IMG/VR virus record: IMGVR_UViG_3300039216_000106
Span: 1 to 64,000 of that record
From: a virus
DNA length: 64,000 nt
Reading direction: 5' to 3' (one strand)
Shown one piece after another: positions 2-64,000 of this stretch; positions within the stretch are counted from its first letter, which is position 1, and every line of letters begins with the position of its first letter. A program made the translations under genes and the position numbers. The notes beneath the pieces were generated by a model. It saw only the letters and a list, made by a program, of their open reading frames with translations. It was not told where the DNA came from and ran no database searches.

Positions 2-535
2 ATTCCGCAGAACATCGCCGTGCTGGTTGATGGCCACTTTGCCAAATACGCAGTGCAGATCGGCGACACCCTGAATTCGATTGCGACTGCAGTCGCCGCC
101 GCCGTCAATGCGTTCGAGCCCGCTTATGCCGTTGGTCCCGTCGTTCATATCGACGGCGCGCGCGAGCTTTCGGCGCGGGTCGGCGGGGCCGGGGTCAGTT
201 TCAAGGAAGTGATGCGGATCGAGCGCCGGTTTCAGGTCACGTTCTGGTGCCCGACTCCAGCGTTACGAACGGCTGCGGCGAAAGCGGCGACGTTGTATCT
301 CGCTCAACAGAATTTCCTCACCCTTGCCGATGGCATGGGATCACGATTGATCACGGTGGGCGAGCACGAAAGCGATGAACAGCAAAAGCCGCTACTCTAT
401 CGCCGCGACGTGATCTATTCCGTCGAATATCCTGTAACGGATGAGGAAACCGATACACAAATCACGGTTGGCGTTGTAAGTATGTCGGGCGGAATAGATC
501 CGTCTGCGCCGCCGATTGTAACGCAGCCGATGTGA
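2..535 (+). CDS. virion structural protein, 5' end cut by window edge (neck / tail-completion region)
   Basis: Frame is open from base 2 with no stop before the GTG at 20. It lies directly upstream of the sheath gene and carries a YAVQIGDTLNSIATAV signature shared with other virion proteins here. Confidence 0.55.
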   Translation: MPQNIAVLVDGHFAKYAVQIGDTLNSIATAVAAAVNAFEPAYAVGPVVHIDGARELSARVGGAGVSFKEVMRIERRFQVTFWCPTPALRTAAAKAATLYLAQQNFLTLADGMGSRLITVGEHESDEQQKPLLYRRDVIYSVEYPVTDEETDTQITVGVVSMSGGIDPSAPPIVTQPM

Positions 536-545
536 GGTAAGAGCC

Positions 546-785
546 ATGGCATACAATTTGGTCGTGAACGAGCCGTTTGTCATCAAGAACGCGACCGGGG
601 ATAAGGTGCGTTACGACAAGGGGCAGATCGTGGATGACGCGGCGCAGGTTGACGCCATTCTGGCATCGCCGCAGGCTCACCACGTCGTCAAGATCAACGC
701 GCCGGACCCGGTGGTCATTCCTGCCTCGCCCATCACCGTGCCGTCGCCCCGTGCCAAAACTCCTGACGTTGGAGAAAAATCGTGA
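546..785 (+). CDS. hypothetical small protein in tail module
   Basis: 79-aa ORF with an ATG start. Its stop overlaps the sheath GTG start (GTGA), suggesting translational coupling. Confidence 0.45.
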   Translation: MAYNLVVNEPFVIKNATGDKVRYDKGQIVDDAAQVDAILASPQAHHVVKINAPDPVVIPASPITVPSPRAKTPDVGEKS

Positions 786-2641
786 CCCAGATCATCGCCG
801 CAAATTCCCCGACGCCTGTCGTCCCGGACGCCTATATCGCCATCGTTCCGCCGCAGAACCAGTTGATCGCGGGCGCCGCTTACGGGCGCCTCGGCATCGT
901 CGGCACTGCAACGTGGGGTCCAGTTGGCGTTCCCGTAATCATCGGCGGCAACGATCAGCAATTGGCGTCGTTCGGCATCATCCAAAACCGCGAATACGAT
1001 TTGGGCACCGCCGTCGCCGTATCCATTCAGCAAGGCGCGTCCGACATGCGCTGCGTCCGCGCCACGGACGGCACCGATACCGCGGCCACGGCCACGATTG
1101 CGGCCAGCACCGCGATTGAAACCGCGACCATCGGCGGCACGATCACGGCGGCGGACAAGGTCCAGTTGATCTTTACCCCGACCTACGGCGCGGCCATCAC
1201 CGTTTCCTATACCGTGATCGGCACGGACACGACCACCAGCACCGCGACCGCACTTCTCGCCCTGCTCCAAGCCAATGTGGCCCTGACCACGGCCGGTTTC
1301 ACCTTCACGTCGAGTGGCGCCGTCATCACAATGAACGGGCCTGCTATGGGCTGGACCTACAACAAGAACGTCACCGGTGCGGCCACAGAAACGGTCACGC
1401 TGGCTTCCGGCACCGCATCGCCGACGCAATTGACGGTGACGGCCAAGTACACCGGCTCCGCGGGCAACGGCTTGACCATCGCCATTTCAGCCGGCAGCAA
1501 GGCCAGCACATTCAAGGCGACGGTTTCCATTCCGAACCTCGGCATTCCGGCTGAGATTTACGACAACATCGCCGGTCCCGGCAATCTGTTCTGGACCGGT
1601 TTTGCCAGCGCCATAAACAGCGGAATTTCCGGGCTTCGTGGCCCGTCGCAGATCGTCACGGCCACGGCTGGCGTATCGAGTGCGACGCCAACGGTTGCCA
1701 CCACGACGCTTTCGGGCGGTGCTGACGGCGTGTCCGGCGTCGCCACCCAGCAATTGGTCGGTGTTGATACCGCGCCGCGCAAGGGCATGTACGCGCTTCG
1801 TGGCCAGCAATGCCAGATCGTCAATCTTACCGACGCCTGGGACGATACTTATTGGTCCGCGATGTCTGCCTTTGCCGACAGCGAGGCGTGCATCGTCGGC
1901 ACGTCAACGCCAATCGGCGACACCATCTCCGCCGCGGTCGCCGCGCTTTCGAGCGAGGGTGTGGACGATTACAACTTCAAGCTCCTGCTCGGCGATTGGG
2001 TCTATTGGCAGGATCAGGTCAATGGCGTTACCCGCCTCTTAGCCCCGGCCACGTTCTGGGCCGGGCTCCGCGCCGCGACGCCGCCGCAGAATTCGACGCT
2101 GAACCGAGCGGTTCAGGCCGTGGTCGGGACGCAAAAAAGCACGTCGGGCGCCAGCTACTCGACCGCGGACATTGCGGCGCTGGTTCAGGGCCGCGTCGAT
2201 GTCATCTGCAACCCGGTTCCGGGCGGATCCTACTTCGGGCCTCGGATCGGGCGTAACAGTTCGTCCAACGGCGCGACCCGCGGCGAGAATTACACGATGC
2301 TGACCAACTTCATTGTGGCCAGTCTGAAACCGGTGGTCGGCAAGGTCGTGGGTCAGTTGCAGAACCCGACCCAGCGGCGCCAAGCCAAGTCCATGCTGGA
2401 CGATTTCTTCTCCGGCCTCGCGTCGGAAGGTGTGATCGGCACGGCGGACGGAAGCCAGCCATGGCAGGTCACGCTGAACTCGACCAACAACCCGCCTTCG
2501 CAGGTCGCGGCCGGTATCGAAACCATCGCAATCAAGGTCATCTACCAGAGCGTGATCGAATTCCTGATCGTCAATCTGGAAGGCGGCCAGACCGTCACCA
2601 TCGAAAGCAGCGGCGCGCAGCTTCTGTCCAACGCGGCTTGA
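782..2641 (+). CDS. contractile tail sheath protein with an inserted extra domain
   Basis: 619 aa. The N-terminal GIVGTATWGPVGVPVIIGG..QLASFG and C-terminal VICNPVPGG..GPRIGRN regions match the sheath family from memory. It is followed by tube, chaperone and tape measure genes. Confidence 0.8.
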   Translation: MTQIIAANSPTPVVPDAYIAIVPPQNQLIAGAAYGRLGIVGTATWGPVGVPVIIGGNDQQLASFGIIQNREYDLGTAVAVSIQQGASDMRCVRATDGTDTAATATIAASTAIETATIGGTITAADKVQLIFTPTYGAAITVSYTVIGTDTTTSTATALLALLQANVALTTAGFTFTSSGAVITMNGPAMGWTYNKNVTGAATETVTLASGTASPTQLTVTAKYTGSAGNGLTIAISAGSKASTFKATVSIPNLGIPAEIYDNIAGPGNLFWTGFASAINSGISGLRGPSQIVTATAGVSSATPTVATTTLSGGADGVSGVATQQLVGVDTAPRKGMYALRGQQCQIVNLTDAWDDTYWSAMSAFADSEACIVGTSTPIGDTISAAVAALSSEGVDDYNFKLLLGDWVYWQDQVNGVTRLLAPATFWAGLRAATPPQNSTLNRAVQAVVGTQKSTSGASYSTADIAALVQGRVDVICNPVPGGSYFGPRIGRNSSSNGATRGENYTMLTNFIVASLKPVVGKVVGQLQNPTQRRQAKSMLDDFFSGLASEGVIGTADGSQPWQVTLNSTNNPPSQVAAGIETIAIKVIYQSVIEFLIVNLEGGQTVTIESSGAQLLSNAA

Positions 2642-6244: not shown

Positions 6245-7122
6245 TGGCTGTCTTTGGACCAGACTTTGTCGTCAAGATCGGGGATGTGGAACTCTCCAAC
6301 CTGGAGATTCCGGCCACCATCAATTTCGGCGGCAAGCAGAAGATCGGCAAGCACCAGTTGCCGGGTGGCGCCCGCATTCTCGACGCCATGACGCAGGACG
6401 ACGACGACATTACGTGGGAGGGCATGTTCACCGGCCCCGATGCGTTCGCCCGCGCGCGTCAATTGGACGGCTACCGCAAGACTGGCGAACAGGTCACGCT
6501 AAGCTATCACACGCTGAGCTACACCGCGATTGTTGCTGAGTTCGTCGGCAATTTCGAGCGCTATTATCAGGTTCCGTACCGCATCGTTTTGATGGTGGTG
6601 GAAGATTTGTCTCTGCCGCCCGCGTTGTCGCCGGGCAACAGCGTCTTTGACCTCCTCAATTCCGATTTGGCGCAGACCCTGGAAACGGCGCTGGCGCTCG
6701 GCATGGGCATTTCTTCTGCTATCCCAGGCCCCGTAGCGTCGTCGGTTGGCGTCAATCCGCAAACGCCCGGCATAACAGCGCCCGTCCTCACCTATGGCAT
6801 GTCGCTTGACGACCTGGCCGCTGCGCTGACCGTGGTTCGCGAGGACACCGACGCCATTGTGACGCCAAGCGGCGTTACTGTCGCCAGCGTGGCGCAACTT
6901 GTGGCCGCGTTACAGGTGGCGCAGAACCAATGCGCCGCGCTCATGGCGGAATCCGAAACGGTTTTGGGCGTGGCCACCGTGCCGGGCGGCGTCACGGCAG
7001 GCAGTCCTGACCCGGCGGCGTTTCTGTCGTACCTCGCAACATGTGACCAAGCCGTTCAGATCAACCAGCAAGACGATTACCTGACCCGCATGAACCGAAA
7101 CACCTCTTCGGGAGCGCTGTGA
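6244..7122 (+). CDS. tail protein (gpU / DNA-circulation-like position)
   Basis: 292 aa with a start overlapping the tape-measure stop (TAATG). It lies between tape measure and the X/D-like genes. The family call is weak. Confidence 0.45.
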   Translation: MAVFGPDFVVKIGDVELSNLEIPATINFGGKQKIGKHQLPGGARILDAMTQDDDDITWEGMFTGPDAFARARQLDGYRKTGEQVTLSYHTLSYTAIVAEFVGNFERYYQVPYRIVLMVVEDLSLPPALSPGNSVFDLLNSDLAQTLETALALGMGISSAIPGPVASSVGVNPQTPGITAPVLTYGMSLDDLAAALTVVREDTDAIVTPSGVTVASVAQLVAALQVAQNQCAALMAESETVLGVATVPGGVTAGSPDPAAFLSYLATCDQAVQINQQDDYLTRMNRNTSSGAL

Positions 7123-7334
7123 TGGCCGCAACACAACAGGGCGCACCTCTCAAGACGGTCACGGTGGCGGGCGGCAACCTTTTTTCGATTGCGCTTCAGG
7201 TTCTTGGCGACGCGACGCAATGGAACCGGATCGCGCAACAGAACGGCATGACAGATCCGTGGTTTACCGGCGTGGTCACACTGGCCATTCCGCCCACCAA
7301 TTCAGCGGCGGGGGGTGGGATTTATGGCAGTTAA
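7119..7334 (+). CDS. LysM-type tail protein X
   Basis: 71 aa. VTVAGGNLFSIALQVLGDATQWNRIAQQNGMTDPW is a LysM-like signature, and the gene directly precedes a D-like gene as in P2-type tails. Confidence 0.65.
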   Translation: MMAATQQGAPLKTVTVAGGNLFSIALQVLGDATQWNRIAQQNGMTDPWFTGVVTLAIPPTNSAAGGGIYGS

Positions 7335-9497: not shown

Positions 9498-9529
9498 GGT
9501 GTCTTCCGCCTAAATTTTCCCTCGCAAAC

Positions 9530-9569
9530 GTAACGCTCTGTGCGGTGTAACGCAAGGAAATTGTAACGC
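9530..9569 (-). promoter_or_regulatory. three direct copies of the GCGTTAC(A) box upstream of the antisense moron
   Basis: On the minus strand the boxes read GCGTTACA (9569-9562), GCGTTACA (9553-9546) and GCGTTAC (9536-9530). Spacing is 16-17 bp, 33-72 nt upstream of the ATG at 9497. Confidence 0.4.
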
Positions 9570-9600
9570 ACGGGCGCACTTTCGTCCCCGTCGCCCGTGC
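9568..9600. other. perfect 9-bp inverted repeat (hairpin) flanking the moron control region
   Basis: GCACGGGCG (9568-9576) pairs with CGCCCGTGC (9592-9600) around a 15-nt loop. It overlaps the distal box copy. Confidence 0.3.
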
Positions 9601-9667
9601 CAAATCGGCTTTGTACAAGGTGTTCTATTGGCTTATGGTCAGGACACAATCTCTGGGATGATGCGCC

Positions 9668-11874: not shown

Positions 11875-12551
11875 GCACGGGCGACACCAATGACATCCTG
11901 GCACGGCTCCAAACCCTGATACCGCAGGCTTGGTTTGAAAGCGCGCCGCCGATCTTGCAAGGCGTGCTCACCGGTAGCGCCGCGATCGACGCCAATATCT
12001 ACGCGCTGGTCGCTTATGCCAAGCTACAGACCCGCATTAGAACCGCAACAGGCGGCTGGCTGGATCTGATCGCGCTCGATTTCTACGGCAACGCACTGCC
12101 GCGCCAGACTGGCGAAAGCGATACGAACTACCGCACCCGCATCTTGGCCGGGCTGTTCTCGAAAGCCAACACCCGCGCCGTGATTTCGGCAGCGCTTGCC
12201 GATCTTCTCGGTTCTGTCCCGGTCATCATAGAATCGTGGTCCTTACTGGATACGGGTATGTGGGACGGCACCACGGGACAAGTATTTAGCTTCTGGGGTG
12301 TGAACCGACCATCCAACCCGTTCGTCTGGACAAATCCCGGAAGCTTTTTCGTTAAGATCACGCTACCGACCGGATCGCCCTACACAAACGAGCAACTGGC
12401 AGAACTCGCGACTTCGATTGTGGCGCGGCTCAAGGTGTGTGGTATCACCGCCTTTATGCAGGTAATATCCGGCACGGAAATAGGCGGTCCATTTAGCTGG
12501 GACGTGACATCGCAACACTGGGATAGCACTTTGACTTGGGACGCGCACTGA
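11871..12551 (+). CDS. baseplate / tail protein (gpI or Mu gp48-like position)
   Basis: 226 aa with an ATGA overlap on the J-like gene. The position matches P2 gpI / Mu gp48; sequence evidence is weak. Confidence 0.5.
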   Translation: MSTGDTNDILARLQTLIPQAWFESAPPILQGVLTGSAAIDANIYALVAYAKLQTRIRTATGGWLDLIALDFYGNALPRQTGESDTNYRTRILAGLFSKANTRAVISAALADLLGSVPVIIESWSLLDTGMWDGTTGQVFSFWGVNRPSNPFVWTNPGSFFVKITLPTGSPYTNEQLAELATSIVARLKVCGITAFMQVISGTEIGGPFSWDVTSQHWDSTLTWDAH

Positions 12552-49524: not shown

Positions 49525-49944
49525 ATGCGTGACACCATCATCCGCCGCATCCGCCTCCCCCAGCCCAAGATGGGCGGCAAGATGTTCCTTATCCAGGAGC
49601 CTGGGCTTTACGTATTCGAGGAAGGCCCGGCGACGCTTATCACGCTGGCCGTAACGCACGCCGGGTCAGGGACCATCCTTGGTTACGACGGCGTGCCGGA
49701 CGAAAACGGGCGGTTCCCGGACGAGGAAATGCAGGAATGGATGCCGGACGGCAGCCGCAACCCGGACTACGACACCCGCAACGGCCGGGCGATCTACCGC
49801 GCCACACCTGCAGTAATGGGCTCTTGGATGGCGTCAGGCGGCTGTTTTCACGGTCTGGTCATCCATGCGGACGGCGGCGGCCATTCGGTCTGCCCGTTCG
49901 CCACTGTAGTCTGGAACGCATACAAGGCGAGGGAGAAGACATGA
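49525..49944 (+). CDS. hypothetical protein
   Basis: 139 aa from the ATG at 49525. It may be a distant paralogue of the 52290-52643 product. Confidence 0.4.
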   Translation: MRDTIIRRIRLPQPKMGGKMFLIQEPGLYVFEEGPATLITLAVTHAGSGTILGYDGVPDENGRFPDEEMQEWMPDGSRNPDYDTRNGRAIYRATPAVMGSWMASGGCFHGLVIHADGGGHSVCPFATVVWNAYKAREKT

Positions 49945-50834
49945 GCAAGTCGATTTGCATCTATCACGGCGGCTGCGATGACGGGTTTGCCGCGGCATGG
50001 GCGCTCCGCACATCAATGGTGCCTGACACATTCGAGTTTCACCCCGGCGTCTACGGTAACGCTCCTCCTGACGTTTCTGATCGGCACGTTGTTCTTGTCG
50101 ATTTCAGCTACAAGCGCCCAATTCTGACCGAAATGGCGAAGGCAGCAAAGTCAATTCTCATTCTCGACCACCACAAGACGGCGGCCGAAGACCTCGCCGG
50201 AATGCCGCACCCCGGCACCCGCGACGAATGGTGTTTCAGTAAGGCGCCGGACGGCGTCGCGGCGATCTTCGATATGACCCGAAGCGGCTCCGGTATCGCG
50301 TGGGATTTCTTTCACCCGTATCAGGCGCGCCCTGCGTTCATCAATTATGTCGAGGACCGCGACCTTTGGCGCAAGGCGCTTCCGAACGGCGACGAATTTA
50401 CCATCGCTCTGCGGTCACATCCACAAGACTTTGAGACGTGGGACAGGCTTGTCGCCGCAGGCCCAGCGCCCCTGATCGAAGAAGGCCGCGCAATTCAGCG
50501 CTATTATCGGCTTCGCGTCGAGGAACTGAAGCAAAGCTCCTATCTCGCAAAGATTGCTTGGGGCCATGACACCAGAGACCTTACGCGGTCCACCATCGCC
50601 ATCGCGAACGCGCCATATTTTGCGGCGAGTGAGGTTGCGGGCGAACTATGCGCCGTCGATGGTGCCGAGTTTGGGGCAAGCTATTTCGAGGTACGGCCTG
50701 GACAATGGCAATATTCGCTACGATCCCGTGGTGATTTCGATGTTTCGGCGGTCGCCAAGTGCTTCGGTGGCGGCGGGCACAAGAACGCAAGCGGTTTCAC
50801 CATGCCATGGCCCGTTCACGAGAAATTGCCGTGA
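49941..50834 (+). CDS. DHH/DHHA1-family phosphoesterase
   Basis: IYHGGCDDG (motif I region), VLVDFS, ILDHHKT (DHH) and the C-terminal GGGHKNASGF (DHHA1 GGGH). ATGA overlap. Confidence 0.7.
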   Translation: MSKSICIYHGGCDDGFAAAWALRTSMVPDTFEFHPGVYGNAPPDVSDRHVVLVDFSYKRPILTEMAKAAKSILILDHHKTAAEDLAGMPHPGTRDEWCFSKAPDGVAAIFDMTRSGSGIAWDFFHPYQARPAFINYVEDRDLWRKALPNGDEFTIALRSHPQDFETWDRLVAAGPAPLIEEGRAIQRYYRLRVEELKQSSYLAKIAWGHDTRDLTRSTIAIANAPYFAASEVAGELCAVDGAEFGASYFEVRPGQWQYSLRSRGDFDVSAVAKCFGGGGHKNASGFTMPWPVHEKLP

Positions 50835-52947: not shown

Positions 52948-53652
52948 ATGCGCAATCTCGTAGATTACCAATCCGCGCCGTACAATGGGCCGTTTTCCAT
53001 CAGTGCGGCGCTGCTCACCGGGGTTGCTGCGGCGCCCTACGAGGGCCTTTGGGTTCCGATCCAATGGGCCAAGTCCGGAAGCATCGAGTTGAGCGGCACG
53101 TTCAGCGCCATCGATGTTGACCTCTATGTCAGCAACGCGGAACAGGCGCCGGCCAACCAGTATGTTGCGACGTTGGGCGGTTCTGCAACTGAGGCGGATC
53201 ACGTCGGCATCACATTTACGTCTCCGCTCATTTCGGGCGGCAAGACGGTAAGCTACACCGTGGCGAACGGAAACGACTTGACCGCGATCGGCGCTGGCCT
53301 CGCCGCCGCAATCAACGCGGACACCACATTGGCTGCGCTCGGCATCACGGCTGGAGCCGCGTCTGGCGTCGTCACCGTCTCATGGCCCAGCACGTCACCG
53401 ACCGAAGGCGCAGGGCAGTTCTCGTCGCCATCGTCGCCGTCCCAAGCCAACGACCTCAGCCTCGCCTCAGCGCTTTCCGCAGGCGCCACAGAGACGATCA
53501 CATTCACGACCGGCACCAGTGGGCTCAAACTCGGTTCGACCATAAGCGCCGCCGGTCTGACCTCAATCGCCACATCGTATCGCTGGATCAAGGCTCGCCT
53601 CACCAGCATGACCGGGTCATCCGCCGTCGCCAACTACGCCGGGGTCGCGTAA
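52948..53652 (+). CDS. virion protein carrying one copy of the dispersed repeat module
   Basis: 234 aa. ATLGGSATEADHVGITFTSPL..KTVSYTVANGNDLTAIGAGLAAAINADTTLAALGITAGAASGVVTVSWP. Confidence 0.5.
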   Translation: MRNLVDYQSAPYNGPFSISAALLTGVAAAPYEGLWVPIQWAKSGSIELSGTFSAIDVDLYVSNAEQAPANQYVATLGGSATEADHVGITFTSPLISGGKTVSYTVANGNDLTAIGAGLAAAINADTTLAALGITAGAASGVVTVSWPSTSPTEGAGQFSSPSSPSQANDLSLASALSAGATETITFTTGTSGLKLGSTISAAGLTSIATSYRWIKARLTSMTGSSAVANYAGVA

Positions 53653-53737
53653 CCGCGCTTTTCTAATTCCGAGGACACCATGCGTAAATTCCTGATCGCA
53701 CTTCTCGCCGCTAAAGCATCCATTGGAGTTGCATAAC

Positions 53738-56700
53738 ATGGCTGTCTATTTCACGCGAGTGGCGACCCTTTCCGACCTTGCAGCAAAAAATGCAGCCCAA
53801 TGTTCAAGCGTTGGCGGTTTTATCTGCGATGAAACAGGCCATTCATACGAGTGGGAATCAACATCTACAAAAGCGGCCGCGTCGGCTTCTTTTCCACAAG
53901 GCGTTTGTCCGACAGTCATCATCCCGGTGGGTAACCCTGCATCCGGCCGGTTGGAAATTATACTTGCAGATTCCGACGTTGCTGCAGTTCAGGTGATAGC
54001 AACAACCGGTCGCGTTCCAGATCTTGCAAAAGTTGCGTCGGTATCGACCACAAATATCACCTTATCCGGCGAGCACACCATCAATGGATTCACAACAAGC
54101 GCATCTCGCGTCTTGCTGATTGCACAGACCACACAAAGCCAAAACCGTGTTTGGATAACCGGGTCGGGCGCATGGACCACCGCGACAGACGCGGATAGCG
54201 CTGCGGAACTCGGGCTTGCTACCGTCGAAGTTGATGCGACTACATCAACGCTTGCAGGTCAGCGGTATCAATGCCCACTCACCGCCGCGCAGATAACGGC
54301 CGGTGGTGGTGTCGGCACGGTAGCAATCCCCCCATGGGTCAACATTGGAACAAACGCAGCGGCTGCCGCTGTCGCCGCCGAGGCTGCTGCCCGCTCTGCC
54401 GCGGATGATATTTTACGCGGGGAGTCTATAACGGGCGGCGTGACTGCTCCGGGTGCAGGTTATGGTGGGTGGGGCCCTGGTGCAACCGTATTTTGTAGCC
54501 AACCCTTCACTGCAACGGGTCTGCTTCAGACATTAAATTTTTATTTAGATTACGCAGGTCCAGTGGTACTGACTTTAGTTGAACTGAACGACGCAGGTAC
54601 CTCTATCGTGCAACTGGGAGATACTCTTACCCTCCCAAATGCAGTTGGCGGACTCAATACTGTGACGACATGGAATCCTGTCGTCACTCAAGGGTGGTAT
54701 GTAGCGGTTCAAAACGTCTATCACAATGTCAGATACGATAATCAGGCAGGATCATACCTGATTAGCACAAGTCAGGCAATAACGATAGCTAGTACACTCT
54801 CTAATGTTGGAGGGGTTATTTCTGAAATTGGTTGGAAGATTATTACAGGAATTGCTGCTGAGGCCACTATACGTAGTACAAATGATGCTGCTGAAGTCGT
54901 AGCGCGCAACGCGGCCATCGCTGTTGAGACTGGAAATCGTGAAGATGCAATCAATGCTGAGGCTGCGGCTCGCCAAGCACTTGCAGGCGCGGTGCTTTCT
55001 GGCGGAGAACTCAACCCAACCGCAGCCTATGGCGCTTGGACTCTTGGGAACACCGTATTTTGCAAAGATCCCTTTGCGGCCACTGGACCAATTAAATCAA
55101 TCCCAATATATATGCCTGCGGCAGGGTGCATTGAACTTGCACTGGTAAAATTAATTGCTGCAAATACGTTTACGTCTGCGATCTGGACGTCAGGTGTTCT
55201 TACGCTAACTACCGCCGCCGCACATGGAGTGCCGTCAGGTTCTGACGTAACAATCTCGGGGCTAACTAGCTCAAATAGTGTGACGGTGAACGGGACGTTT
55301 GCGACGGCCTCTGGGACTACAGGATCGACTATCAATATCCCCATTTCTGCCGATCCTGGAACGGTGGGGTATTCTTCTGGCGCGCTCGCTGCGGGGATGG
55401 TTGTTGGAGAGACTTACGAATACACCGCCGCGGCTGGTACATCGGTCATCACCACATGGCATCCAGTCGCCGCGCCGGGGTGGTATTTGACAGCCTATGC
55501 GGAGGGGGGAAACCATATTCGGTATGCTAATACTGTCGGTCAGAACAGCTATGCAATGCTGGGGCGTCCTGGTGAATTGTCTGGTGCAGTTGTAGACTAC
55601 AGCGGTATTGTTTTTCAATTCGGCTGGACGATGACCTGTGGTCTAGTGGGGGAAACCATAGCCAGTGGAGGAGCGGCGGAGGCACTATCCGCAGCAATTC
55701 TAGATCAATCAACAAGCACCCCAACCACAGTCTCGGCCGCGACAGCACTGGGAATTAAAAAAGCATTTCTTGTTACTGGCTATAGTGACGCCGACGCTAC
55801 GGCGGCGGTCAATAACACGATTATTCCAGACACCACTCCTGACTACATTTCGGCCATACAGTTTGTGCAGCCTGCTTGGGCTGATCGTAACGGCAATAGC
55901 GGTTATGCACAAAGCAATGAGTTTTCCGGAACTGGTGGGGCGCCCGTCCTAACCACCCAGCCGTACTACAACAAAATGCCGGACTCGACGTATGCGGACT
56001 TTGTAGCAAACCCAGGGCCGGATGTGAATCACATCCGCTATGAAATAACCGATACAGGTACAATTACCGGTGAACGGCCACTACTGATTGGCGGTGACGC
56101 AGTAATAAACGTTGTGCCTGAGACTACTTTTTGTGAGTCGTCAAACTACGCGGTAGAGTGGGCCTCCGACAATTGGGGTGTTAATCCTGCGAAAAACATC
56201 GTCTACGCTTTTTGTGGTGGACGTGGTGGAGAGCCACTCAACCACTTCATCAAAGGTACCGATCCATATACAGTATTTATGGACTTCTTTGCGCAGTCAC
56301 AAACCTATTTCCATTCTCAAAATCTGAGCTACAACGTCCAAACGATACCCTATATCGGACACGAGAACATTGATACCGCTGCCACGCCTGATGCCTATTC
56401 TTGGGCGGAGATGTTTAAGAAGTTAGCGCACGATAGATCGGGAGATATTGCAAATCTCACCGGACAGCAAACTCCGGCCTACACTCTCGGCGTACCGACT
56501 TGCGTCGGAGTTTTGCAGGGGCAGGCACAGCAGGGCATGTTGAAGGCTTGTCTGGAAGACTCGATTTGCTGCTACGTTACACCTGATTACGACATAGTGA
56601 GAAACACGGTAGACGCTACGCACTATATTCGCTCAGGGGCTCTCTACTTAGGAGCAAAAATTGGTCGGGCTCGCGCTCAGATAATGGGTTCTCCAACTTA

Positions 56701-57292
56701 CGGAATTCGTGGCAGAAAACCAGATTTTTTGAAACCAATAAACTTTATTTATTATGGCATAAGCAAGGGCTCAAAAGTCATCCTTACATTTCAGGCTCCC
56801 GGCGTACTTGAGTTTGCACAGCTTACCTTGGCCGGAGCAACGGGTTGGTCAAACAAACCTAGTGGCGCAAATGGTTGGGCGCCTCGCGGATTGAACCTGC
56901 AAGCCAAGGGTATTGGGTCTCTTTTCTCCTCGGATAACACTACAGCTTATAATCAGATGATCATCGGCAGTAATACCGTTTCGATTGAATTTACTCTTGA
57001 TCACGACCTTCCATCTGCGGGTAATGGTCCGGCCCTCATCAGTATCTCAACAGGCGGCTGCGGAGATTTGTACGGACAAGTAGTGGCTCCTGGAATTAAC
57101 GTTGCCAACGGCGGAAGTTGTGACTTGCGCGCCCATAGCACGGATGTCTATCATAATCCAGCGGACGGCATTGATTACCCCATGCACCACCTTTGTCCGC
57201 TGTTTTCTATGATTGCGACTCCAGCCCCTTCAATTCCATTTTCACAGTACCCGGACAATGAAGACTGGTTGCGGATGATGGGATTAGTGTAG
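53738..57292 (+). CDS. very large fibre / spike-like receptor-binding protein with internal duplication
   Basis: 1184 aa from the ATG at 53738 (GGAG upstream). The N-terminal SRVLLIAQTTQSQNRVWITGSGAWTTATDAD is spike-like, followed by two coiled-coil plus beta modules. GC is lower by eye. Confidence 0.65.
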   Translation: MAVYFTRVATLSDLAAKNAAQCSSVGGFICDETGHSYEWESTSTKAAASASFPQGVCPTVIIPVGNPASGRLEIILADSDVAAVQVIATTGRVPDLAKVASVSTTNITLSGEHTINGFTTSASRVLLIAQTTQSQNRVWITGSGAWTTATDADSAAELGLATVEVDATTSTLAGQRYQCPLTAAQITAGGGVGTVAIPPWVNIGTNAAAAAVAAEAAARSAADDILRGESITGGVTAPGAGYGGWGPGATVFCSQPFTATGLLQTLNFYLDYAGPVVLTLVELNDAGTSIVQLGDTLTLPNAVGGLNTVTTWNPVVTQGWYVAVQNVYHNVRYDNQAGSYLISTSQAITIASTLSNVGGVISEIGWKIITGIAAEATIRSTNDAAEVVARNAAIAVETGNREDAINAEAAARQALAGAVLSGGELNPTAAYGAWTLGNTVFCKDPFAATGPIKSIPIYMPAAGCIELALVKLIAANTFTSAIWTSGVLTLTTAAAHGVPSGSDVTISGLTSSNSVTVNGTFATASGTTGSTINIPISADPGTVGYSSGALAAGMVVGETYEYTAAAGTSVITTWHPVAAPGWYLTAYAEGGNHIRYANTVGQNSYAMLGRPGELSGAVVDYSGIVFQFGWTMTCGLVGETIASGGAAEALSAAILDQSTSTPTTVSAATALGIKKAFLVTGYSDADATAAVNNTIIPDTTPDYISAIQFVQPAWADRNGNSGYAQSNEFSGTGGAPVLTTQPYYNKMPDSTYADFVANPGPDVNHIRYEITDTGTITGERPLLIGGDAVINVVPETTFCESSNYAVEWASDNWGVNPAKNIVYAFCGGRGGEPLNHFIKGTDPYTVFMDFFAQSQTYFHSQNLSYNVQTIPYIGHENIDTAATPDAYSWAEMFKKLAHDRSGDIANLTGQQTPAYTLGVPTCVGVLQGQAQQGMLKACLEDSICCYVTPDYDIVRNTVDATHYIRSGALYLGAKIGRARAQIMGSPTYGIRGRKPDFLKPINFIYYGISKGSKVILTFQAPGVLEFAQLTLAGATGWSNKPSGANGWAPRGLNLQAKGIGSLFSSDNTTAYNQMIIGSNTVSIEFTLDHDLPSAGNGPALISISTGGCGDLYGQVVAPGINVANGGSCDLRAHSTDVYHNPADGIDYPMHHLCPLFSMIATPAPSIPFSQYPDNEDWLRMMGLV

Positions 57293-57522: not shown

Positions 57523-58158
57523 ATGTCGTCACCCGGATCAGAACCGGTAACGCCTCCGAACCCAGCACCGACACCAGCCGCACCCGTAACGCCGCCCACT
57601 CCGACGCCAGCTACGCCGGTAGAGCCGCATGAGACGCCGGAACAGGCTCGGTCTCGGCTCAACGCTGAGGCCGCTGCATACCGCATTCAGGCCAAGGATG
57701 CGCGGGAATTGGCGAGGGACGCAGAAGCCAAACTGGCGGCGCTGAAAACCTCCGCCGAAACAGACAAGCAATCAGCCATTGCGGCGGAAAGGTCAAAAGT
57801 GGACGCGTTGAAACCTCGGATCATCGAAGCGGAACTCAAGGCGGCGCTGGTCGGCGAAGGCGTGCTCGATCCCGAACTGGTTGGCCTTGTCGGCCGCGAC
57901 GGCATTACGGTGGACGAAAACGGAGCGGTTACCGGTGTGACAGAGGCTGTGGCGAAGTTCAAGGCGGCGAAGCCCAATTTCTTCCGCGCGCCCGCGGCGC
58001 CCGCACCGGCCCCAGTTCCGGCCCCAACATCCAGCGGCAACCCGTCAGCCCCGCCGGCCAATCCCAATCCGAGCCCGACGAACGTCAAAGACATGTCGGC
58101 GTCTCAGTACCGAGATTACAAGTCCGGCATTCGGCGCCGGTTGCGTGGCGGGCGGTAA
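57523..58158 (+). CDS. capsid scaffolding protein
   Basis: 211 aa with Pro-rich ends and a long central coiled coil (RSRLNAEAAAYRIQAKDARELARDAEAKLAALK). It lies upstream of the major capsid gene. Confidence 0.65.
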   Translation: MSSPGSEPVTPPNPAPTPAAPVTPPTPTPATPVEPHETPEQARSRLNAEAAAYRIQAKDARELARDAEAKLAALKTSAETDKQSAIAAERSKVDALKPRIIEAELKAALVGEGVLDPELVGLVGRDGITVDENGAVTGVTEAVAKFKAAKPNFFRAPAAPAPAPVPAPTSSGNPSAPPANPNPSPTNVKDMSASQYRDYKSGIRRRLRGGR

Positions 58159-58853: not shown

Positions 58854-60227
58854 ATGGCCAACTGGACCGGCTTCCCGGCCGCGCTCGCCGCCGAACTTCA
58901 GACCGGATTATTGGAACGCGAATTCGAAGAGGGTTTGGATTCCATCCTCGGCTACCGCCGCGAAGCGATGCAGGAGACCATTCCGGCCCGCATCGGTGAA
59001 TCGATCACCCGCACCCGTACCGGCCGCAAGGCGCCGGTCACCACACCGATGAACGCACAGTCCTCGTCCTCGCTGGACAACGGCTTGAGCGCGTCGGACG
59101 CGGCTCTTGAGCAATATACACTCGCGACCTACGAATACGGCGACGCCACCGACGTGAACCTCATGCAGGATCTGGCGTCGATCGCGAACAACATGACCCG
59201 CGTGGCCCGCAACAACGGTGTGCAGTCGGCGCAGTCCTTGGAGCGCTTGGCCCGCTCGGCATTCTTCAGCGCGTATCTGGGCGGCAACACTCGTGTCCGC
59301 GTTGACCTTGGCGCACCTGGCACCACGAGCTGCTACGTCGATGACATTCGTGGCTTTCAGACCGTCCTGGTCAACGGAAGGCCGACGCCGGTCGGTTCTG
59401 GCACGAACATCACAGTGCAGGAAATCCAGGCGTCATCCTCCGGTGTAACCCAGACCCTGACCGTGACTTCCGTGGTTGCGGAAGGAACCAACCACTCCAA
59501 GACGCCAGACGGCATTTCCGGCACGCTCACGTTCTCGGCCGCCACCACGCCGGTCAACGGCGATGCCTTGGTTGCTTCGAACGCGCCGCAAGTGTTGCGC
59601 CCGATGGGGCGTTTGTCCACCGCGTCTCTTCAGGGCGGCGATGTGATGACCCTCGGCATTTTGCAGGACGCCACCACGATCCTGAAAAACAACAGCGTTC
59701 CGCCCACCGACGACGGCAGCTATCACGTCATCCTCGACAACACGTCGATGCGCCAGTTGTTCGCCGATCAGGACTTCAAGGTGCTCTACGCCGGTCGCTA
59801 TCAGTCGAAGGAATGGGAGACAGGCGATATCGTCCGCCTGCTCGATATGACCTTCATTCCGACGACGGAAGCCTATGTGCAGACCGCATCCACGACCACG
59901 GCAAACGGCGCCACCGACAAGATTGGTGTCACGGTTCGCCGCCCGCTCGTGATCGGCGCCGAAGCGCTGATCGAAGGCGACTTTGAGGGCTTGGACACTT
60001 GGCTGGAACGTTCGGGCATGAACAACATTTCCGACGTGTTCCTGGTCGACAACATCGCGCACATCGTCCGGCCGCCTCTCGACCGCCTCGCGCAGTGGGC
60101 ATCATTCGCCTGGACTTTCATTGGTGGCTACGCCGCACCTTCAGATTTGACCGCCACCACCAGCATCATTCCTACTGCCAGTAGTGCGCTCTACAAGCGT
60201 TGTACGGTGATCGAGCACGCAGGTTAA
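58854..60227 (+). CDS. major capsid protein, N4-gp56-like family
   Basis: 457 aa. The N-terminus LAAELQTGLLEREFEEGLDSILGYRREAMQETIPARIGESITRTRTG resembles the N4-gp56 MCP family from memory. Confidence 0.75.
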   Translation: MANWTGFPAALAAELQTGLLEREFEEGLDSILGYRREAMQETIPARIGESITRTRTGRKAPVTTPMNAQSSSSLDNGLSASDAALEQYTLATYEYGDATDVNLMQDLASIANNMTRVARNNGVQSAQSLERLARSAFFSAYLGGNTRVRVDLGAPGTTSCYVDDIRGFQTVLVNGRPTPVGSGTNITVQEIQASSSGVTQTLTVTSVVAEGTNHSKTPDGISGTLTFSAATTPVNGDALVASNAPQVLRPMGRLSTASLQGGDVMTLGILQDATTILKNNSVPPTDDGSYHVILDNTSMRQLFADQDFKVLYAGRYQSKEWETGDIVRLLDMTFIPTTEAYVQTASTTTANGATDKIGVTVRRPLVIGAEALIEGDFEGLDTWLERSGMNNISDVFLVDNIAHIVRPPLDRLAQWASFAWTFIGGYAAPSDLTATTSIIPTASSALYKRCTVIEHAG

Positions 60228-60385: not shown

Positions 60386-60619
60386 ATGAAAAGTCCCTCC
60401 AAGAATGTCTCGGCTTCCCTTCACAGTCAGAAGGAAGCCGGTCGATCCGCGATCAAGCCGACCGTTTCGGGTCTGAAAAAGGGCGTTTCGATGACGGTTC
60501 CCGGTGAGGGTGGCGTCGAGAAACCGGCAGGCGCTGGGCGCGGCTCGCAAGCTGGTCGTTCCGCCGCGGTCTACGCCGATGCGGTTTCCAGCAAGTTCGG
60601 CGGAAAGAAATCGACGTGA
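60386..60619 (+). CDS. hypothetical basic Gly/Ser/Lys-rich protein
   Basis: 77-aa ORF with low-complexity composition. Confidence 0.35.
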   Translation: MKSPSKNVSASLHSQKEAGRSAIKPTVSGLKKGVSMTVPGEGGVEKPAGAGRGSQAGRSAAVYADAVSSKFGGKKST

Positions 60620-60804
60620 CGACGCGCCGCGTCAGCGGCGGGACGAAGACAGTCGGTTCCATGGACACTTCGCTTCCGCAAGCCTTTCATCCTGGCTGGG
60701 ATGCGAGACCGGGCTTGGCCCAAGCGCATGACCACGTTTTGCGCCGCGAGGCCATGGGCAAGAAAAAGACGCCCATTGGTTCGGGCGTGATGAGGAAGAA
60801 ATAG
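60616..60804 (+). CDS. hypothetical basic protein
   Basis: 62-aa ORF with a GTGA overlap. Confidence 0.3.
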   Translation: MTTRRVSGGTKTVGSMDTSLPQAFHPGWDARPGLAQAHDHVLRREAMGKKKTPIGSGVMRKK

Positions 60805-60807
60805 GCC

Positions 60808-62391
60808 ATGGTGAATATTCCGCTTTCCGGCACGCCCGGCTCGTTCGATCCGCGCAACCCGACGCTGGTCCCGAACTTCGACCGCCCCGGCAATAGCGGG
60901 TACGGCACATTGGACCATATCTCACCAGCTCAATTCCTGATCAACAACCCGCGCACCGATGCGAGCGCGGTAGTGACGATCGGTGAAACCGTTACGACCG
61001 GCGATGTCAGCACGTTGCGTGTCGCGCACGGCCTGTTCACCGGTGGTTACCTCGAAAAGTCGCATACATCGATCGGCGGCGATACCGTTTCCACCATCGC
61101 CGATGCGCTCCAAACCGCGTTCAACGCCGATGCACAGGCGAAAGCCGTTGGCCTTGTGGTCAGCGCCGCCGCGGGCGTCTTGACCTTCGCATGGCCTTCC
61201 GCGCTCGGCAACATGGCCATTCTGTCCGGCTGGGCCGAAGCCGCGGCCGAAACCATCACGATTGGCGGCACCGCGACCGCAACCGATACGCTCAACGTCC
61301 GCTTTGCGGGTGGTGCGCTTTCCACTCCCGTCATTGTCGCCGCAACGGTGACTGGCGGCGAAAGCACGACCGACATGGCGACGGGCGTCAAGAACGCGAT
61401 CAACGCCAGCGCAACCCTCACCGCGGCTGGGATCACTGCCACGTCGTCAGGTGCCGTTGTGACCCTGGTCACGACGCCGGATTCCGGCGCAAACACGGTT
61501 CTGGCCTGGGCCAATGGTCCAGCCGAAACCGGCACCGTCGCCAACATGACGGCGACCGAAACGGCGACGATTGGCACGGGTAGCGCTCCGGCCGCGCTTG
61601 ACACTGTCGCGCTGACCTTCACCAATTCTGGTGTGACCGGCCTTCCCGTCACCAAGACCTACACCGTGATCGGCGGCGATACCGTCAACACGATTGCGGC
61701 CGGGCTCAACGCGCTGATCAACGCCGACGCGGTTCTGGCCGCAGGGTTCATCACGTCCACGGTTTCCAACGCGGTTCTGACCTTCCACCAGCCGCAGGCC
61801 GTTGGCAACTCGACTGTCGTGACCCGTACCGTTACAGAGACGGGCGGCGGATCTGAAACCGTCACGTTTGGCAACGCGGGAAGCCTCGCTGGTGGCGTCG
61901 GTGCCGTGGGCAACACCGTCGCGCTCACCGTCACAAACTCGCTTTTGACCGGTAGCCCGATCACGAAGACGTACACCGTGGTCGCTGGCAATGACGCCAC
62001 CGCCGTTGCGGCAGGGCTCAAGGCCCTTGTCAATGCCGACACCGTACTGGCCGCCGCAGGTTATGCCGCCACCAATTCTGCGAACGTGCTGTCCGTGACC
62101 AATCCGGCCGTGGCTGGCCCCACCGCGTATTCGCGGACTTCGGCCGTCATCACGTTCACGCTGGCCGGTGACCCGACCGAGACGCTGACCATTGCCGCGG
62201 GCGAGACCGAGACGTTTACGCTCAACCCGCTCACCGGCATCTTTGCCGGCGGCGACGGCCCGGTTATCCCGTACAACAACTTCAGCTATGTCTGGCACAG
62301 CGCGACCATGAATTTCTGGATCGGCCAGCCCGTCATCGTGCCTTACGACCTCCTGGCCGCACTGGTCGCCGATGGAGAACCAATCGTATGA
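60808..62391 (+). CDS. virion (decoration-like) protein with four tandem ~100-aa repeat modules
   Basis: 527 aa directly downstream of the capsid gene. Module cores lie at aa 86-128, 178-222, 284-327 and 388-432. Confidence 0.6.
   Translation: MVNIPLSGTPGSFDPRNPTLVPNFDRPGNSGYGTLDHISPAQFLINNPRTDASAVVTIGETVTTGDVSTLRVAHGLFTGGYLEKSHTSIGGDTVSTIADALQTAFNADAQAKAVGLVVSAAAGVLTFAWPSALGNMAILSGWAEAAAETITIGGTATATDTLNVRFAGGALSTPVIVAATVTGGESTTDMATGVKNAINASATLTAAGITATSSGAVVTLVTTPDSGANTVLAWANGPAETGTVANMTATETATIGTGSAPAALDTVALTFTNSGVTGLPVTKTYTVIGGDTVNTIAAGLNALINADAVLAAGFITSTVSNAVLTFHQPQAVGNSTVVTRTVTETGGGSETVTFGNAGSLAGGVGAVGNTVALTVTNSLLTGSPITKTYTVVAGNDATAVAAGLKALVNADTVLAAAGYAATNSANVLSVTNPAVAGPTAYSRTSAVITFTLAGDPTETLTIAAGETETFTLNPLTGIFAGGDGPVIPYNNFSYVWHSATMNFWIGQPVIVPYDLLAALVADGEPIV
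60970..62218 (+). repeat. four tandem ~300-nt coding repeats (protein-level module array)
   Basis: Recurrent T(I/F)GG..A...D.V.L.F......P(V/I)TKTYTV..GD(T)...IAAGL.ALINAD.VLAA.G...T....VLT. The copies are diverged at nucleotide level. Confidence 0.7.
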
Positions 62392-62765
62392 CGCGGGGTG
62401 CCAACCTCAAGAAGACGTGCGCGCGGTGCGGCGCTGAGGCCCATATCAGGACCAAGGTCTGCAAGACGTGTCAGACGCCGTTCCCTGGCATGGCCAAGAA
62501 AGCTTCCGCTACGGCAGAAAATGTTTCTGTGAAACATTCCGACCCGAACGCGCCCACGGTTTACGCCGCAATCCGTGACTTCCGTCATGTCATCGGTGGC
62601 GCCACCGTGGCGTTTACCGCGGGCAAGCCGATCACGGACGAACGCATTTTGGCCGCTCTGATCCAGGCCGAAGCCCCGATTGCGCCGCTTGACCCGAGCA
62701 AAGAACTGGTGCGATGCCCGCATTGCGGCGTCCTTTTCGTGAACGAGAAACCCGCGGAAAACTGA
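62388..62765 (+). CDS. double zinc-ribbon protein
   Basis: CARCG...CKTC near the N-terminus and CPHCG near the C-terminus. 125 aa with an ATGA overlap. Confidence 0.45.
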   Translation: MTRGANLKKTCARCGAEAHIRTKVCKTCQTPFPGMAKKASATAENVSVKHSDPNAPTVYAAIRDFRHVIGGATVAFTAGKPITDERILAALIQAEAPIAPLDPSKELVRCPHCGVLFVNEKPAEN

Positions 62766-62766
62766 T

Positions 62767-63603
62767 GTGCTCACCGAAGCCACAAAAGCGAATGTTCGTA
62801 GGCATTTGCAATTTCCCGCCATCGGGTTGCTGAGGGTATCGGCTGGCGGTCAAACGCTGGGCAGCGCTGCGGCTGGCTATCGGTTTTTCGAAGTATTCGG
62901 ACAGTTGGAATGGCGGCTGAACAATTTGGCCGGCAATGAAGAGGCCATGCTGACCGGCGCGAGTTATGGTTCCGTGATCCTGGTCGGGCCTCAACCGGCG
63001 CAGGGCGATACGGTTTCGATCACGGTTTCTGGCGGCTTGATCCCGAGCCCGGTTACAGTCACCGCGACGGCCCCGGCCCCATCGGTTGACGCATCTGGCC
63101 AGCCCACTGACACCCGCATCAACCTCGTGAACGGCTTGGCCGCGGGCATCGCCGCAAATGCCGTGCTTCAATCCCTTGGCGTCTACAGCGCGGCGCCATA
63201 CGGCACCGGCCCCTATTCGCAGAACGCCGCGGCCGTGCCGGAAATCAGCATCGTGTCACCGTTCGATTTTGCCATTTCGGCCACGGGCTCTGGCGTTCTG
63301 AAGCCCCAGGTCACGGCCAACGGGGTGAAACTGCCGCCGAGCGCGAGCCTGGACGGCGGAACGACCACGCTTTACGGGTATCTCGGAATTCTCGACGGGC
63401 TTGAAAGTGCGTTCGCCGGATCGAGCGACAATTTAGATACTAAACGGGCAGCCGTTTGGGAACATCATTCCCAGGAACTTGCCATGAGGCAAAGTTTGTA
63501 TCAATCCTGGGTTTCTCGCCTTTCCGACTTTCTGAACATCCCTGTCAATCCGCGCCGCACCGGCACGCCCGCAACCCACCTTGGCGTCATGAGGTTTTCA
63601 TGA
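62767..63603 (+). CDS. virion protein with one degenerate copy of the repeat module
   Basis: 278 aa with a GTG start. GDTVSITVSGGLIPSPVTVTATA...INLVNGLAAGIAANAVLQSLGV. Confidence 0.5.
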   Translation: MLTEATKANVRRHLQFPAIGLLRVSAGGQTLGSAAAGYRFFEVFGQLEWRLNNLAGNEEAMLTGASYGSVILVGPQPAQGDTVSITVSGGLIPSPVTVTATAPAPSVDASGQPTDTRINLVNGLAAGIAANAVLQSLGVYSAAPYGTGPYSQNAAAVPEISIVSPFDFAISATGSGVLKPQVTANGVKLPPSASLDGGTTTLYGYLGILDGLESAFAGSSDNLDTKRAAVWEHHSQELAMRQSLYQSWVSRLSDFLNIPVNPRRTGTPATHLGVMRFS

Positions 63604-64000
63604 GAGCCGAGGGCATCGCAAAGAAGATTTGGACGGGGTACGGCCGCGCCGGCAAGAAACTCGGTTTTCCGACGAACGTGTATCGCCCATCGTCCGCGAC
63701 CAACCCGTTGGCGCCGGGAAATCTCGTTACCACGCTCAAAGCCAGCTTTGCCCACAACGAAGAATTCACGTCGATGGACAAATACGGCCAGCCGATGTGG
63801 CACACCATCATCGACGGCAACAAGGTAACGGACGGCGACTATCTGGTCTACACCGACTTGCATTTCGACGGGACGCGGACCTTTTTTCTGGCCTGCCGCT
63901 GGCCCGATTTGCCTATGCCCTCGGTCTACTGCAACTCGGTCATCAACGTGATGCGACCGGCGCAGAATGCGGGGACAGGGGTGCAGGGCTATGGCGGCAA
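63600..64000 (+). CDS. structural-module protein, 3' end cut by window edge
   Basis: ATG at 63600 (ATGA overlap). Hand translation is open to base 64000 (MRAEGIAKKIWTGYGRAGKKLGFPTNVYRP...). Confidence 0.5.
   Translation, partial: MRAEGIAKKIWTGYGRAGKKLGFPTNVYRPSSATNPLAPGNLVTTLKASFAHNEEFTSMDKYGQPMWHTIIDGNKVTDGDYLVYTDLHFDGTRTFFLACRWPDLPMPSVYCNSVINVMRPAQNAGTGVQGYGG

Follow-up and report, generated by a model that had tools for sequence, protein, structure and literature searches.

A capsid-adjacent myovirus protein with four tandem copies of a domain also carried by contractile tail sheaths

The surface of phage particles is often coated with small accessory domains, in the classical case immunoglobulin-like (Ig-like) ones, that tune adsorption and persistence in the environment. 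The comparison systems for the present work are Hoc of phage T4, other Ig-like decoration proteins, and the head fibre gp8.5 of phi29, whose gene also follows the capsid gene. We examine a protein of 527 amino acids (aa) with four tandem repeats, encoded next to the capsid gene in a 64,000-nucleotide stretch of viral DNA (positions 1 to 64,000 of IMG/VR record IMGVR_UViG_3300039216_000106, referred to as the window).

A further point of comparison is the contractile tail sheath. The sheath of phage φTE has, beyond its conserved core of D1, D2 and D4, an additional external domain, D3 (PMC11972413), and in phage A-1(L) the outer sheath density is poor owing to flexible loops between domains I and III (PMC10966104). 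Added sheath domains of this kind lie away from the tube contact and are regarded as non-essential, and a role in adhesion or stability has been proposed for them (PMC9230969). The repeat unit of the 527-aa protein is the same domain as this external D3, or additional, domain of contractile tail sheaths, and the protein belongs to a known kind, the accessory surface domains of phage particles.

The repeat protein and its modules

The gene and its parts are as follows; E is the expectation value and HMM stands for hidden Markov model.

60808..62391, plus strand: repeat gene, 527-aa protein (open reading frame call, 77 homologues, AlphaFold2 model confident in the repeat cores)
60808..60963, plus strand: N-terminal non-repeat segment, aa 1-52, motif GTPGxFDPRNPTLxPNFD (conserved columns; predicted disordered or extended)
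60961..61251, plus strand: repeat 1, aa 52-148 (unit HMM E 1.3e-27; shuffle statistics)
61243..61542, plus strand: repeat 2, aa 146-245, with GGES in place of GDT (unit HMM E 1.1e-25)
61546..61845, plus strand: repeat 3, aa 247-346, core TKTYTVIGGDTVNTIAAGLNALINAD (unit HMM E 2.7e-30; single-repeat AlphaFold2 model)
61849..62151, plus strand: repeat 4, aa 348-448, core TKTYTVVAGNDATAVAAGLKALVNAD (unit HMM E 4.2e-25; 48% identical to repeat 3)
62152..62388, plus strand: C-terminal segment, aa 449-527, motif GGxGPVIxxNNF...G-P...PI (conserved columns; family-specific HMM)

The open reading frame (ORF) at 60808..62391 is called in the window on the plus strand and has a GAGGA Shine-Dalgarno sequence about 10 nucleotides upstream of its ATG. 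The stop of the upstream ORF lies 3 nucleotides before this ATG, and the start codon of the downstream ORF overlaps the stop codon of the repeat gene. The product has a mass of 52 kDa and an isoelectric point of 4.3, consists to 60% of A, T, G, V and S, and contains no Cys. Three of its 77 homologues are 70-73% identical to it over the full length.

A sequence-only reading of the window had placed four consecutive repeats at 60970 to 62218, and both parts of this description stand. Smith-Waterman alignment of the segments aa 53-145, 146-245, 246-345 and 346-450, with 200 shuffles each, gives scores of 94-191 as against 35-54 for the shuffles; all six repeat pairs have z values of 5.7-19.2, and for no pair does any of the 200 shuffles reach the observed score. 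Four complete units are recognised by the repeat HMM, at aa 52-149, 146-242, 249-346 and 361-447 (E about 1e-25 to 3e-30), which span nucleotides ~60961-62151, so that the range first given was about right. Both core sequences quoted in that reading are present in the 527-aa translation.

The repeats are 25-48% identical to one another, and Tandem Repeats Finder detects no tandem repeat at the DNA level of the gene. The duplications are therefore old, and on the same two grounds a recent duplication of DNA is ruled out. BLASTP of the protein against itself gives the identity match only. In the alignment of homologues, the repeat types are orthologous and partly reordered. Conservation among 114 non-redundant units is highest at G9, D15, Y35, T36, D41, T42, A47 (this last at 100%), L50, I54, N55, D/N57, L60, G64 and A67.

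By Smith-Waterman comparison with shuffles, the N-terminal 52 and the C-terminal ~77 residues show no resemblance to the repeats. Both are conserved in their own right, with invariant columns in the homologue alignment at P5, R16, P18, T19, L20, P22 and N23 in the N-terminal segment and at G481, G482, G484, P485, N491, F492, G506 and G523 in the C-terminal one. HMMs of the two terminal segments are specific to the family of the 527-aa protein and have no other match in the window or the fetched loci.

With the whole protein as query, scans of Pfam, PHROG and NCBIfam give nothing usable (weak Enas and BON matches at E 0.3-0.8 were dismissed as noise), and phmmer against the PDB sequences gives no match. 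The protein and the module consensus have no tblastn match among 50,697 phage genomes, a result to which the low-complexity filter may contribute. The sheath domain discussed below is accordingly the one link found to a structurally characterised virion protein.

The structure of the repeats is predicted with confidence. An AlphaFold2 model of the whole protein, built with an alignment of 19 sequences, has a predicted local distance difference test score (pLDDT) of 80-95 in the repeat cores, below 50 in the N-terminal segment and 53-69 in the C-terminal segment, and the order of secondary structure is identical in every repeat (β-β-β-α14-α5-β-β-β). Its predicted template-modelling score (pTM) is 0.48; the combination of confident domains and low pTM means well-defined beads whose mutual arrangement is undefined in the model. 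A single repeat (repeat 3), modelled with 53 diverse repeat units, has pLDDT 85, pTM 0.79 and the same order of elements (E-E-E-H14-H5-E-E-E) over ~95 residues.

Sheath, flagellin and LysM likenesses of the module

What is this ~95-residue module? The profile of 53 repeat units, searched against the PDB sequences, matches the sheath of φTE at E 8e-4 (profile positions 4-82, chain residues 89-162), and the sheaths of phages A-1(L), 7-7-1 and Milano follow at E 0.016, 0.038 and 0.14. Foldseek searches of the PDB, one for the full model and one for the single repeat (the top 50 matches being listed for each), point to the same proteins. The A-1(L) sheath is matched at probability 1.0, with a template-modelling (TM) score of 0.55 and 26% identity, and the Milano sheath at 24% identity with a root-mean-square deviation (rmsd) of 4.1 Å over 129 columns; the 7-7-1 sheath has an rmsd of 4.1-4.5 Å, and φTE is matched too. 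Among predicted viral structures, those that Foldseek retrieves with this fold include proteins under the annotations tail tubular protein B, tail knob, baseplate and sheath.

The sheaths (φTE 9cb9/9cba, A-1(L) 8kee, 7-7-1 9hz7, Milano 8foy/8fop) and the 527-aa protein thus have a ~95-aa α/β module in common, which in the former is, and in the latter would be, a surface-exposed accessory domain. They differ in the frame that holds it: a single insertion into the sheath core in the one case, four tandem copies between unrelated termini in the other. The 527-aa protein lacks a sheath core and matches neither phrog_23 nor any sheath model of Pfam. We also considered a sheath paralogue and dismissed it for lack of that core. 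Several of the solved sheath structures contain the module, yet it is without a family name or model: Pfam, PHROG and NCBIfam hold no model of it, and in the literature we found no paper that describes it as a family or ties it to tandem-repeat proteins, RHS proteins or flagellin.

Flagellin shows a likeness of fold. The single repeat matches Pseudomonas aeruginosa FliC (4nx9) in Foldseek at probability 0.99 (TM 0.55, rmsd 4.4 Å, 23% identity), and the outer domains of Vibrio cholerae FlaA/FlaB are matched at probability 0.7-0.75. These outer domains belong to a similar fold class and, like sheath D3, are surface-exposed insertions in a polymer-forming protein. They differ from the module in having no sequence-level match to it: the profile search of the PDB sequences returns no flagellin at E<=10. 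The 527-aa protein lacks the flagellin terminal domains, with no Pfam match to Flagellin_N, Flagellin_C or Flagellin_IN.

The repeats had been read at first as possible divergent LysM domains, on account of a YxVxxGDTxxxIA core. The first half of this core does echo LysM (PF01476). Repeat unit and LysM have in common a motif of ~19 residues, a β-strand, G-D-T and a helix with I-A, and the match is above its controls: against a canonical LysM profile of 18 sequences, built from LytE and 16 viral LysM domains, hhalign gives probability 48%, P 1.8e-4 and score 23.5 over 19 columns, whereas the reversed profile reaches 0.4% and 30 column shuffles reach at most 1.9% with scores of at most 14. The second half of the core was described as unlike classical LysM, and the profile matches indeed cover, as a rule, the strand, GDT and first helix. 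The LysM effector Ecp6 is matched by the repeat profile at E 2.6e-5, over profile positions 28-54 only. Pfam LysM has no match at E<=1 on the 527-aa protein or on any of its four repeats. A Pfam scan of single repeats finds LysM in 8 of the 53 family units, none of them the window's own, with a best E of 1.7e-5, and on homologues it covers positions ~1-16 of the 43 of the LysM profile, rarely reaching 32-37.

The unit as a whole is another matter. It is twice as long as LysM, with three extra strands before the motif, two after it and other helix lengths. As a six-strand unit of ~95 aa, it matches the sheath external domains over the full length, and in the Foldseek search a confident single-repeat fold has no LysM structure among its top 50 matches, so that the description as a divergent LysM domain is not supported. 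The GDT itself is replaced in repeat 2 (GES), repeat 4 (GND), and the copies of the module in the window's sheath (TDT) and in a 234-aa protein (GND), both described below. The repeats are not LysM domains, though their third strand and first helix carry a LysM-type motif. With a thin profile of four LysM sequences and no realignment, module positions 36-78 span the whole LysM domain in 43 columns with a single one-residue gap. We considered from this that the module might be a full LysM core with extra strands; with the deeper profile the 43 columns shrank to 19, and the idea is kept as a rival only.

Two observations on nomenclature belong here. The homologues P0005 and P0022 bear the public names 'LysM repeat protein' and 'nucleoid-associated protein YgaU'. 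Such names arise because Pfam LysM, by summing partial matches to the first ~16 LysM positions, exceeds its gathering threshold on some complete homologues, and they are probably misleading. The ORF at 7119..7334 (plus strand, 71 aa), which had been called a canonical LysM tail protein X, was overstated as such: it has no Pfam match at E<=0.01 and matches a PDB 'LysM domain-containing protein' (9gtp_P) at E 0.012 only. Its product is probably a divergent baseplate wedge protein of LysM fold, and hhalign of the repeat profile against it gives probability 0.6%.

Probable place and role on the particle

The fold had been noticed in the capsid-adjacent protein alone. A scan of the window with the unit HMM over all six reading frames finds it also in the sheath and in at least three other virion genes:

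1115..1393, plus strand: module copy in the tail sheath (ORF 782..2641, aa 112-204; unit HMM E 2.2e-20)
53164..53436, plus strand: module copy in a 234-aa protein (ORF 52948..53652, aa 73-163; unit HMM E 1.6e-26)
62977..63195, plus strand: partial diverged copy in a 278-aa protein (ORF 62767..63603, aa 71-143; E 4.7e-8, HMM positions 5-69)
44..112, plus strand: partial copy in a 285-aa protein, core YxVxxGDTxxxIAxxxxxxxNA (E 8.3e-8)

The sheath ORF is identified by phrog_23 (E 2.2e-39), and its copy is 24-39% identical to repeats 1-4. The 278-aa and 285-aa proteins are those of the neck region, their genes being situated after the repeat gene and before the sheath gene. Taken together, the copies outside the repeat protein are 24-41% identical to the repeats, which is comparable to the identity among the repeats themselves.

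The following genes precede the repeat gene:

57523..58158, plus strand: scaffolding protein gene (PF06810 E 2.2e-15; phrog_194)
58854..60227, plus strand: major capsid protein gene (phrog_1357, E 1.2e-24)
60386..60804, plus strand: two small basic ORFs between capsid and repeat genes (77 aa at 60386..60619; ~62-70 aa, start ~60586/60616, to 60804)

The repeat gene lies downstream of the capsid gene, as had been stated, with the two small conserved ORFs intervening. On a contig that encodes an identical protein the order is scaffold, capsid, 46 aa, 77 aa, repeat gene, 125 aa, 278 aa, 223 aa, 285 aa, 79 aa and a 619-aa sheath, and the repeat gene follows the capsid gene in five independent contexts (that of the window and four divergent ones), which agree in the succession of scaffold, capsid, two small ORFs, repeat gene, neck-region genes and sheath. 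By capsid protein the nearest cultured phages, all myoviruses, are the Ralstonia phages Hyacinthe and Raharianne (48% identical) and the Komagataeibacter phage phiKX1 (41%). Hyacinthe and phiKX1 have no counterpart of the repeat protein, which is therefore dispensable for this head type.

The N- and C-terminal segments, as found by their HMMs, co-occur in 53 retrieved proteins with lengths of 310-334, 410-429, 503-549, 633-672, 763, 844-862 and 954-978 aa, that is, in steps of ~100 aa, and HMM counts give ~2 to 8-9 modules per homologue. With fixed ends and a freely varying number of beads, a projecting fibre is to be expected and not a lattice-constrained component. The reading we favour, and hold to be reasonably probable, is that the 527-aa protein is an accessory structural protein on the outside of the myovirus virion, a dispensable fibre of beads, comparable to Hoc, that sits on the head or neck and probably serves weak adhesion. 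Its incorporation into the virion, its location on the head or neck and its adhesive role are what we infer from the evidence above, and the location outside the capsid is suggested by synteny.

The architecture would be an extended N-terminus of ~50 residues, four α/β beads of ~95 residues on a string, and a C-terminus of ~79 residues. One or both conserved termini would most likely dock on the capsid or neck lattice, and the modules would stand out from it as a flexible fibre, much as T4 Hoc or the head fibre of phi29 do. There they could make multivalent, low-affinity contacts with polymers of the host surface and possibly with each other, and the modules on the sheath, the neck-region proteins and the 234-aa protein of the head block would extend this surface over the whole particle. 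Such a scheme is modelled on the weak adhesion proposed for Hoc and phage Ig-like domains, as cited in a passage of PMC9230969.

The likeness to Hoc and the head fibres lies in tandem small globular domains with a docking segment (a putative one here) and in a dispensable, variable protein; with Hoc and the Ig-like decoration proteins it also lies in a promiscuous domain that occurs on other virion proteins and for which weak adhesion is proposed. The difference from Hoc and phi29 is that the module is α/β, as opposed to an Ig-like β-sandwich or a helical fibre, that there is no sequence relationship (Pfam and PHROG show no Ig-family match on the 527-aa protein), and that capsid binding is here a matter of inference.

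Several points weigh against this reading. From gene order alone the capsid, the neck and the tail cannot be told apart as locations, and a module that also occurs on the sheath and on neck-region proteins would suit the neck or the tail equally well. The terminal segments have no match in Pfam, PHROG, NCBIfam or the PDB sequences, and for that reason their docking is a guess. The conserved residues of the unit are mostly core hydrophobics, glycines and helix-capping Asp, Thr and Asn; as judged from the sequences, such conservation gives no clear ligand site and would fit a purely structural role equally. Single sheath chains in the PDB are matched with modest E values only (8e-4 to 0.14). A tail fibre or receptor-binding protein was also considered; gene order and the other fibre-like genes of the window (a 1189-aa ORF and the baseplate block) make it less likely.

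Could the modules instead hold the particle together? As structural stabilisers they would bind neighbouring virion subunits or like modules and act as cement, as a collar or as a brace from neck to sheath. Flagellin outer domains can dimerise on filaments, which counts for such a role, as do the copies on the same phage's sheath and on two neck-region proteins and the concentration of conservation in core and capping residues; the proposals made for added sheath domains moreover include stabilisation beside adhesion (PMC9230969). Yet a lattice-matched brace should have a fixed length, while homologues with both termini carry ~2 to 8-9 copies; the close capsid relatives do without the protein, and the full-length model (pTM 0.48) suggests flexible, independent domains. 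We regard this role as unlikely, and somewhat more doubtful still is the one in which divergent LysM-type domains bind peptidoglycan or another N-acetylglucosamine (GlcNAc) glycan multivalently from the capsid. The local similarity on which the latter draws is real (8 of 53 units, Ecp6 at E 2.6e-5, hhalign probabilities of 48-54% with P 1-2e-4 as against at most 1.9% in controls), it extends to the whole LysM domain at module positions 36-78 when realignment is omitted, and the GDT-bearing loop between strand 1 and helix 1 is part of the sugar-binding groove of LysM. With the deeper profile it is nevertheless limited to ~19 columns, usually LysM positions 1-16 of 43, and Pfam has no match on the window's protein or repeats, nor is there a LysM structure among the top 50 Foldseek matches of either model. 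The helices have 14 and 5 residues where LysM has two similar ones, GDT is lost in repeats 2 and 4 and in the sheath and 234-aa copies, and the module aligns with sheath D3 from end to end but does not match the window's protein X (0.6%).

The protein might also be no virion component at all but a late-operon module protein for another use, such as a secreted or cell-surface factor, in keeping with the presence of the module in giant non-viral RHS proteins. This we consider very improbable: the gene is tightly packed and translationally coupled inside the head-to-tail structural block, its position is kept in five divergent phages, scans of Pfam, PHROG and NCBIfam find no enzymatic or toxin domain, and the module is common to the phage's own sheath.

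The preferred reading, a weakly adhesive fibre, may be carried further. Three of the four solved sheaths with the module come from flagellotropic phages (φTE, 7-7-1 and Milano), and since the fold also resembles the flagellin outer domains, binding to flagellar filaments is a possibility, by mimicry of the contacts that outer domains make. It is likewise possible that the LysM-like strand and helix are a remnant of a glycan-binding site. The proposal as a whole is that an unnamed adhesion domain coats the whole particle, as a four-copy head or neck fibre, on the neck proteins and on every sheath subunit, for many-point binding of a filamentous or polymeric host structure, possibly the flagellum, with an evolutionary link between LysM, sheath D3 and the flagellin outer domains. 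We offer this with considerable doubt; if it were true, the module would be the α/β counterpart of the Ig-like domains of phage surfaces.

The module beyond the window, and neighbouring genes

The divergent relatives L003, L005 and L009 show the same distribution of the module as the window. The gene of the 234-aa protein lies upstream of the scaffold gene and is kept in L003 and L009; its product has no Pfam, PHROG or NCBIfam match. The partial copy in the 278-aa protein is likewise present in L003, L009 and L011, and the C-terminus of this protein matches phrog_14539. The ORF at 20..535 is the C-terminal 171 aa of the 285-aa protein, its gene being cut by the start of the window; the full gene in L011 (6464-7321) matches HMM positions 3-56, and a 280-aa homologue in Ralstonia phage Hyacinthe (coding sequence 8819-9661) has a partial module copy at 1e-10. 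L005 has, beside its sheath gene, an extra gene for a 407-aa protein (11016-12239) with two module copies.

On a wider scale, an exhaustive profile search retrieves 2,017 representative clusters at E<=1e-3, 259 of them at E<=1e-30. The module also occurs in a class of phage proteins of ~800 aa, encoded in a tail-fibre region, with two module copies, and in giant proteins of cyanobacteria, Rhodospirillales and Obscuribacterales with 3-16 copies combined with RHS repeats. The profile search of genome contigs gives three loci only, all of them giant cellular proteins. In these RHS/YD-repeat proteins the same module stands at strong E-values in arrays of 3-16; they differ from the phage protein in being cellular, with RHS shells and presumably toxin cargo, and in lacking its terminal segments. 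The module is a promiscuous extracellular and virion-surface domain.

What is gained is the definition of another accessory module of phage surfaces, α/β in fold, ~95 residues long and present in about 2,000 protein clusters, together with its use in one lineage: in tandem on a capsid-adjacent protein, as one copy on the sheath and as partial copies on two neck-region proteins. A name and a model for the family would help to annotate many 'hypothetical' virion proteins, and would stop the 'LysM repeat protein' and 'YgaU' mislabels that rest on a partial match of 16 residues. Should the module prove an adhesin, host-range engineering or display would gain a modular handle; otherwise it is another decorative domain.

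Some neighbouring genes deserve mention. The two small, very basic ORFs between the capsid and repeat genes are kept in all relatives examined, with the motifs MTVPGEG and KKTPxGPG. Against their counterparts in L009, L003 and L005 they give alignment scores of 127-263 and 81-142. The second, which reaches the relatives at tblastn E 1e-17, is not called by the gene finder in the window's lineage. Both may encode proteins of the head, with an internal or a cementing role.

In L003 (3947-4195) and L009 (4384-4608) the gene directly before that of the ~234-aa module protein, on the upstream side of the scaffold gene, encodes a 74-82-aa protein with a Biotin_lipoyl-like Pfam match, weak in L009; the product may be a decoration protein of small size. 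Downstream of the repeat gene, a 125-aa protein (62388-62765, plus strand, its start overlapping the repeat-gene stop) has two zinc-ribbon motifs (PF12773/PF13248, E ~1e-4, under the curated cut-offs). It is kept in L009 as 124 aa, and a zinc ribbon is unusual amid a head-to-tail structural block.

Within the head-morphogenesis block, between the 234-aa module gene and the scaffold gene, lies the gene of the 1189-aa protein (53723-57292, plus strand), which matches phrog_4201 'tail fiber protein' at E 3e-22 and phrog_24595 'virion structural protein'. L009 has only a 158-aa gene at this slot, and the 1189-aa protein could be a head fibre or the product of a cargo gene acquired recently. At 49737-50834 (plus strand), between the presumed portal region and the head genes, lies the gene of a 365-aa protein that has the phosphoesterase domains DHHA1 (E 2e-6) and DHH (E 2e-3). 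The window itself starts in the 285-aa gene (20-535) and ends in the 223-aa gene (63600-64000), which implies, by comparison with L011, that it is a nearly whole, circularly permuted myovirus genome of ~64.6 kb.

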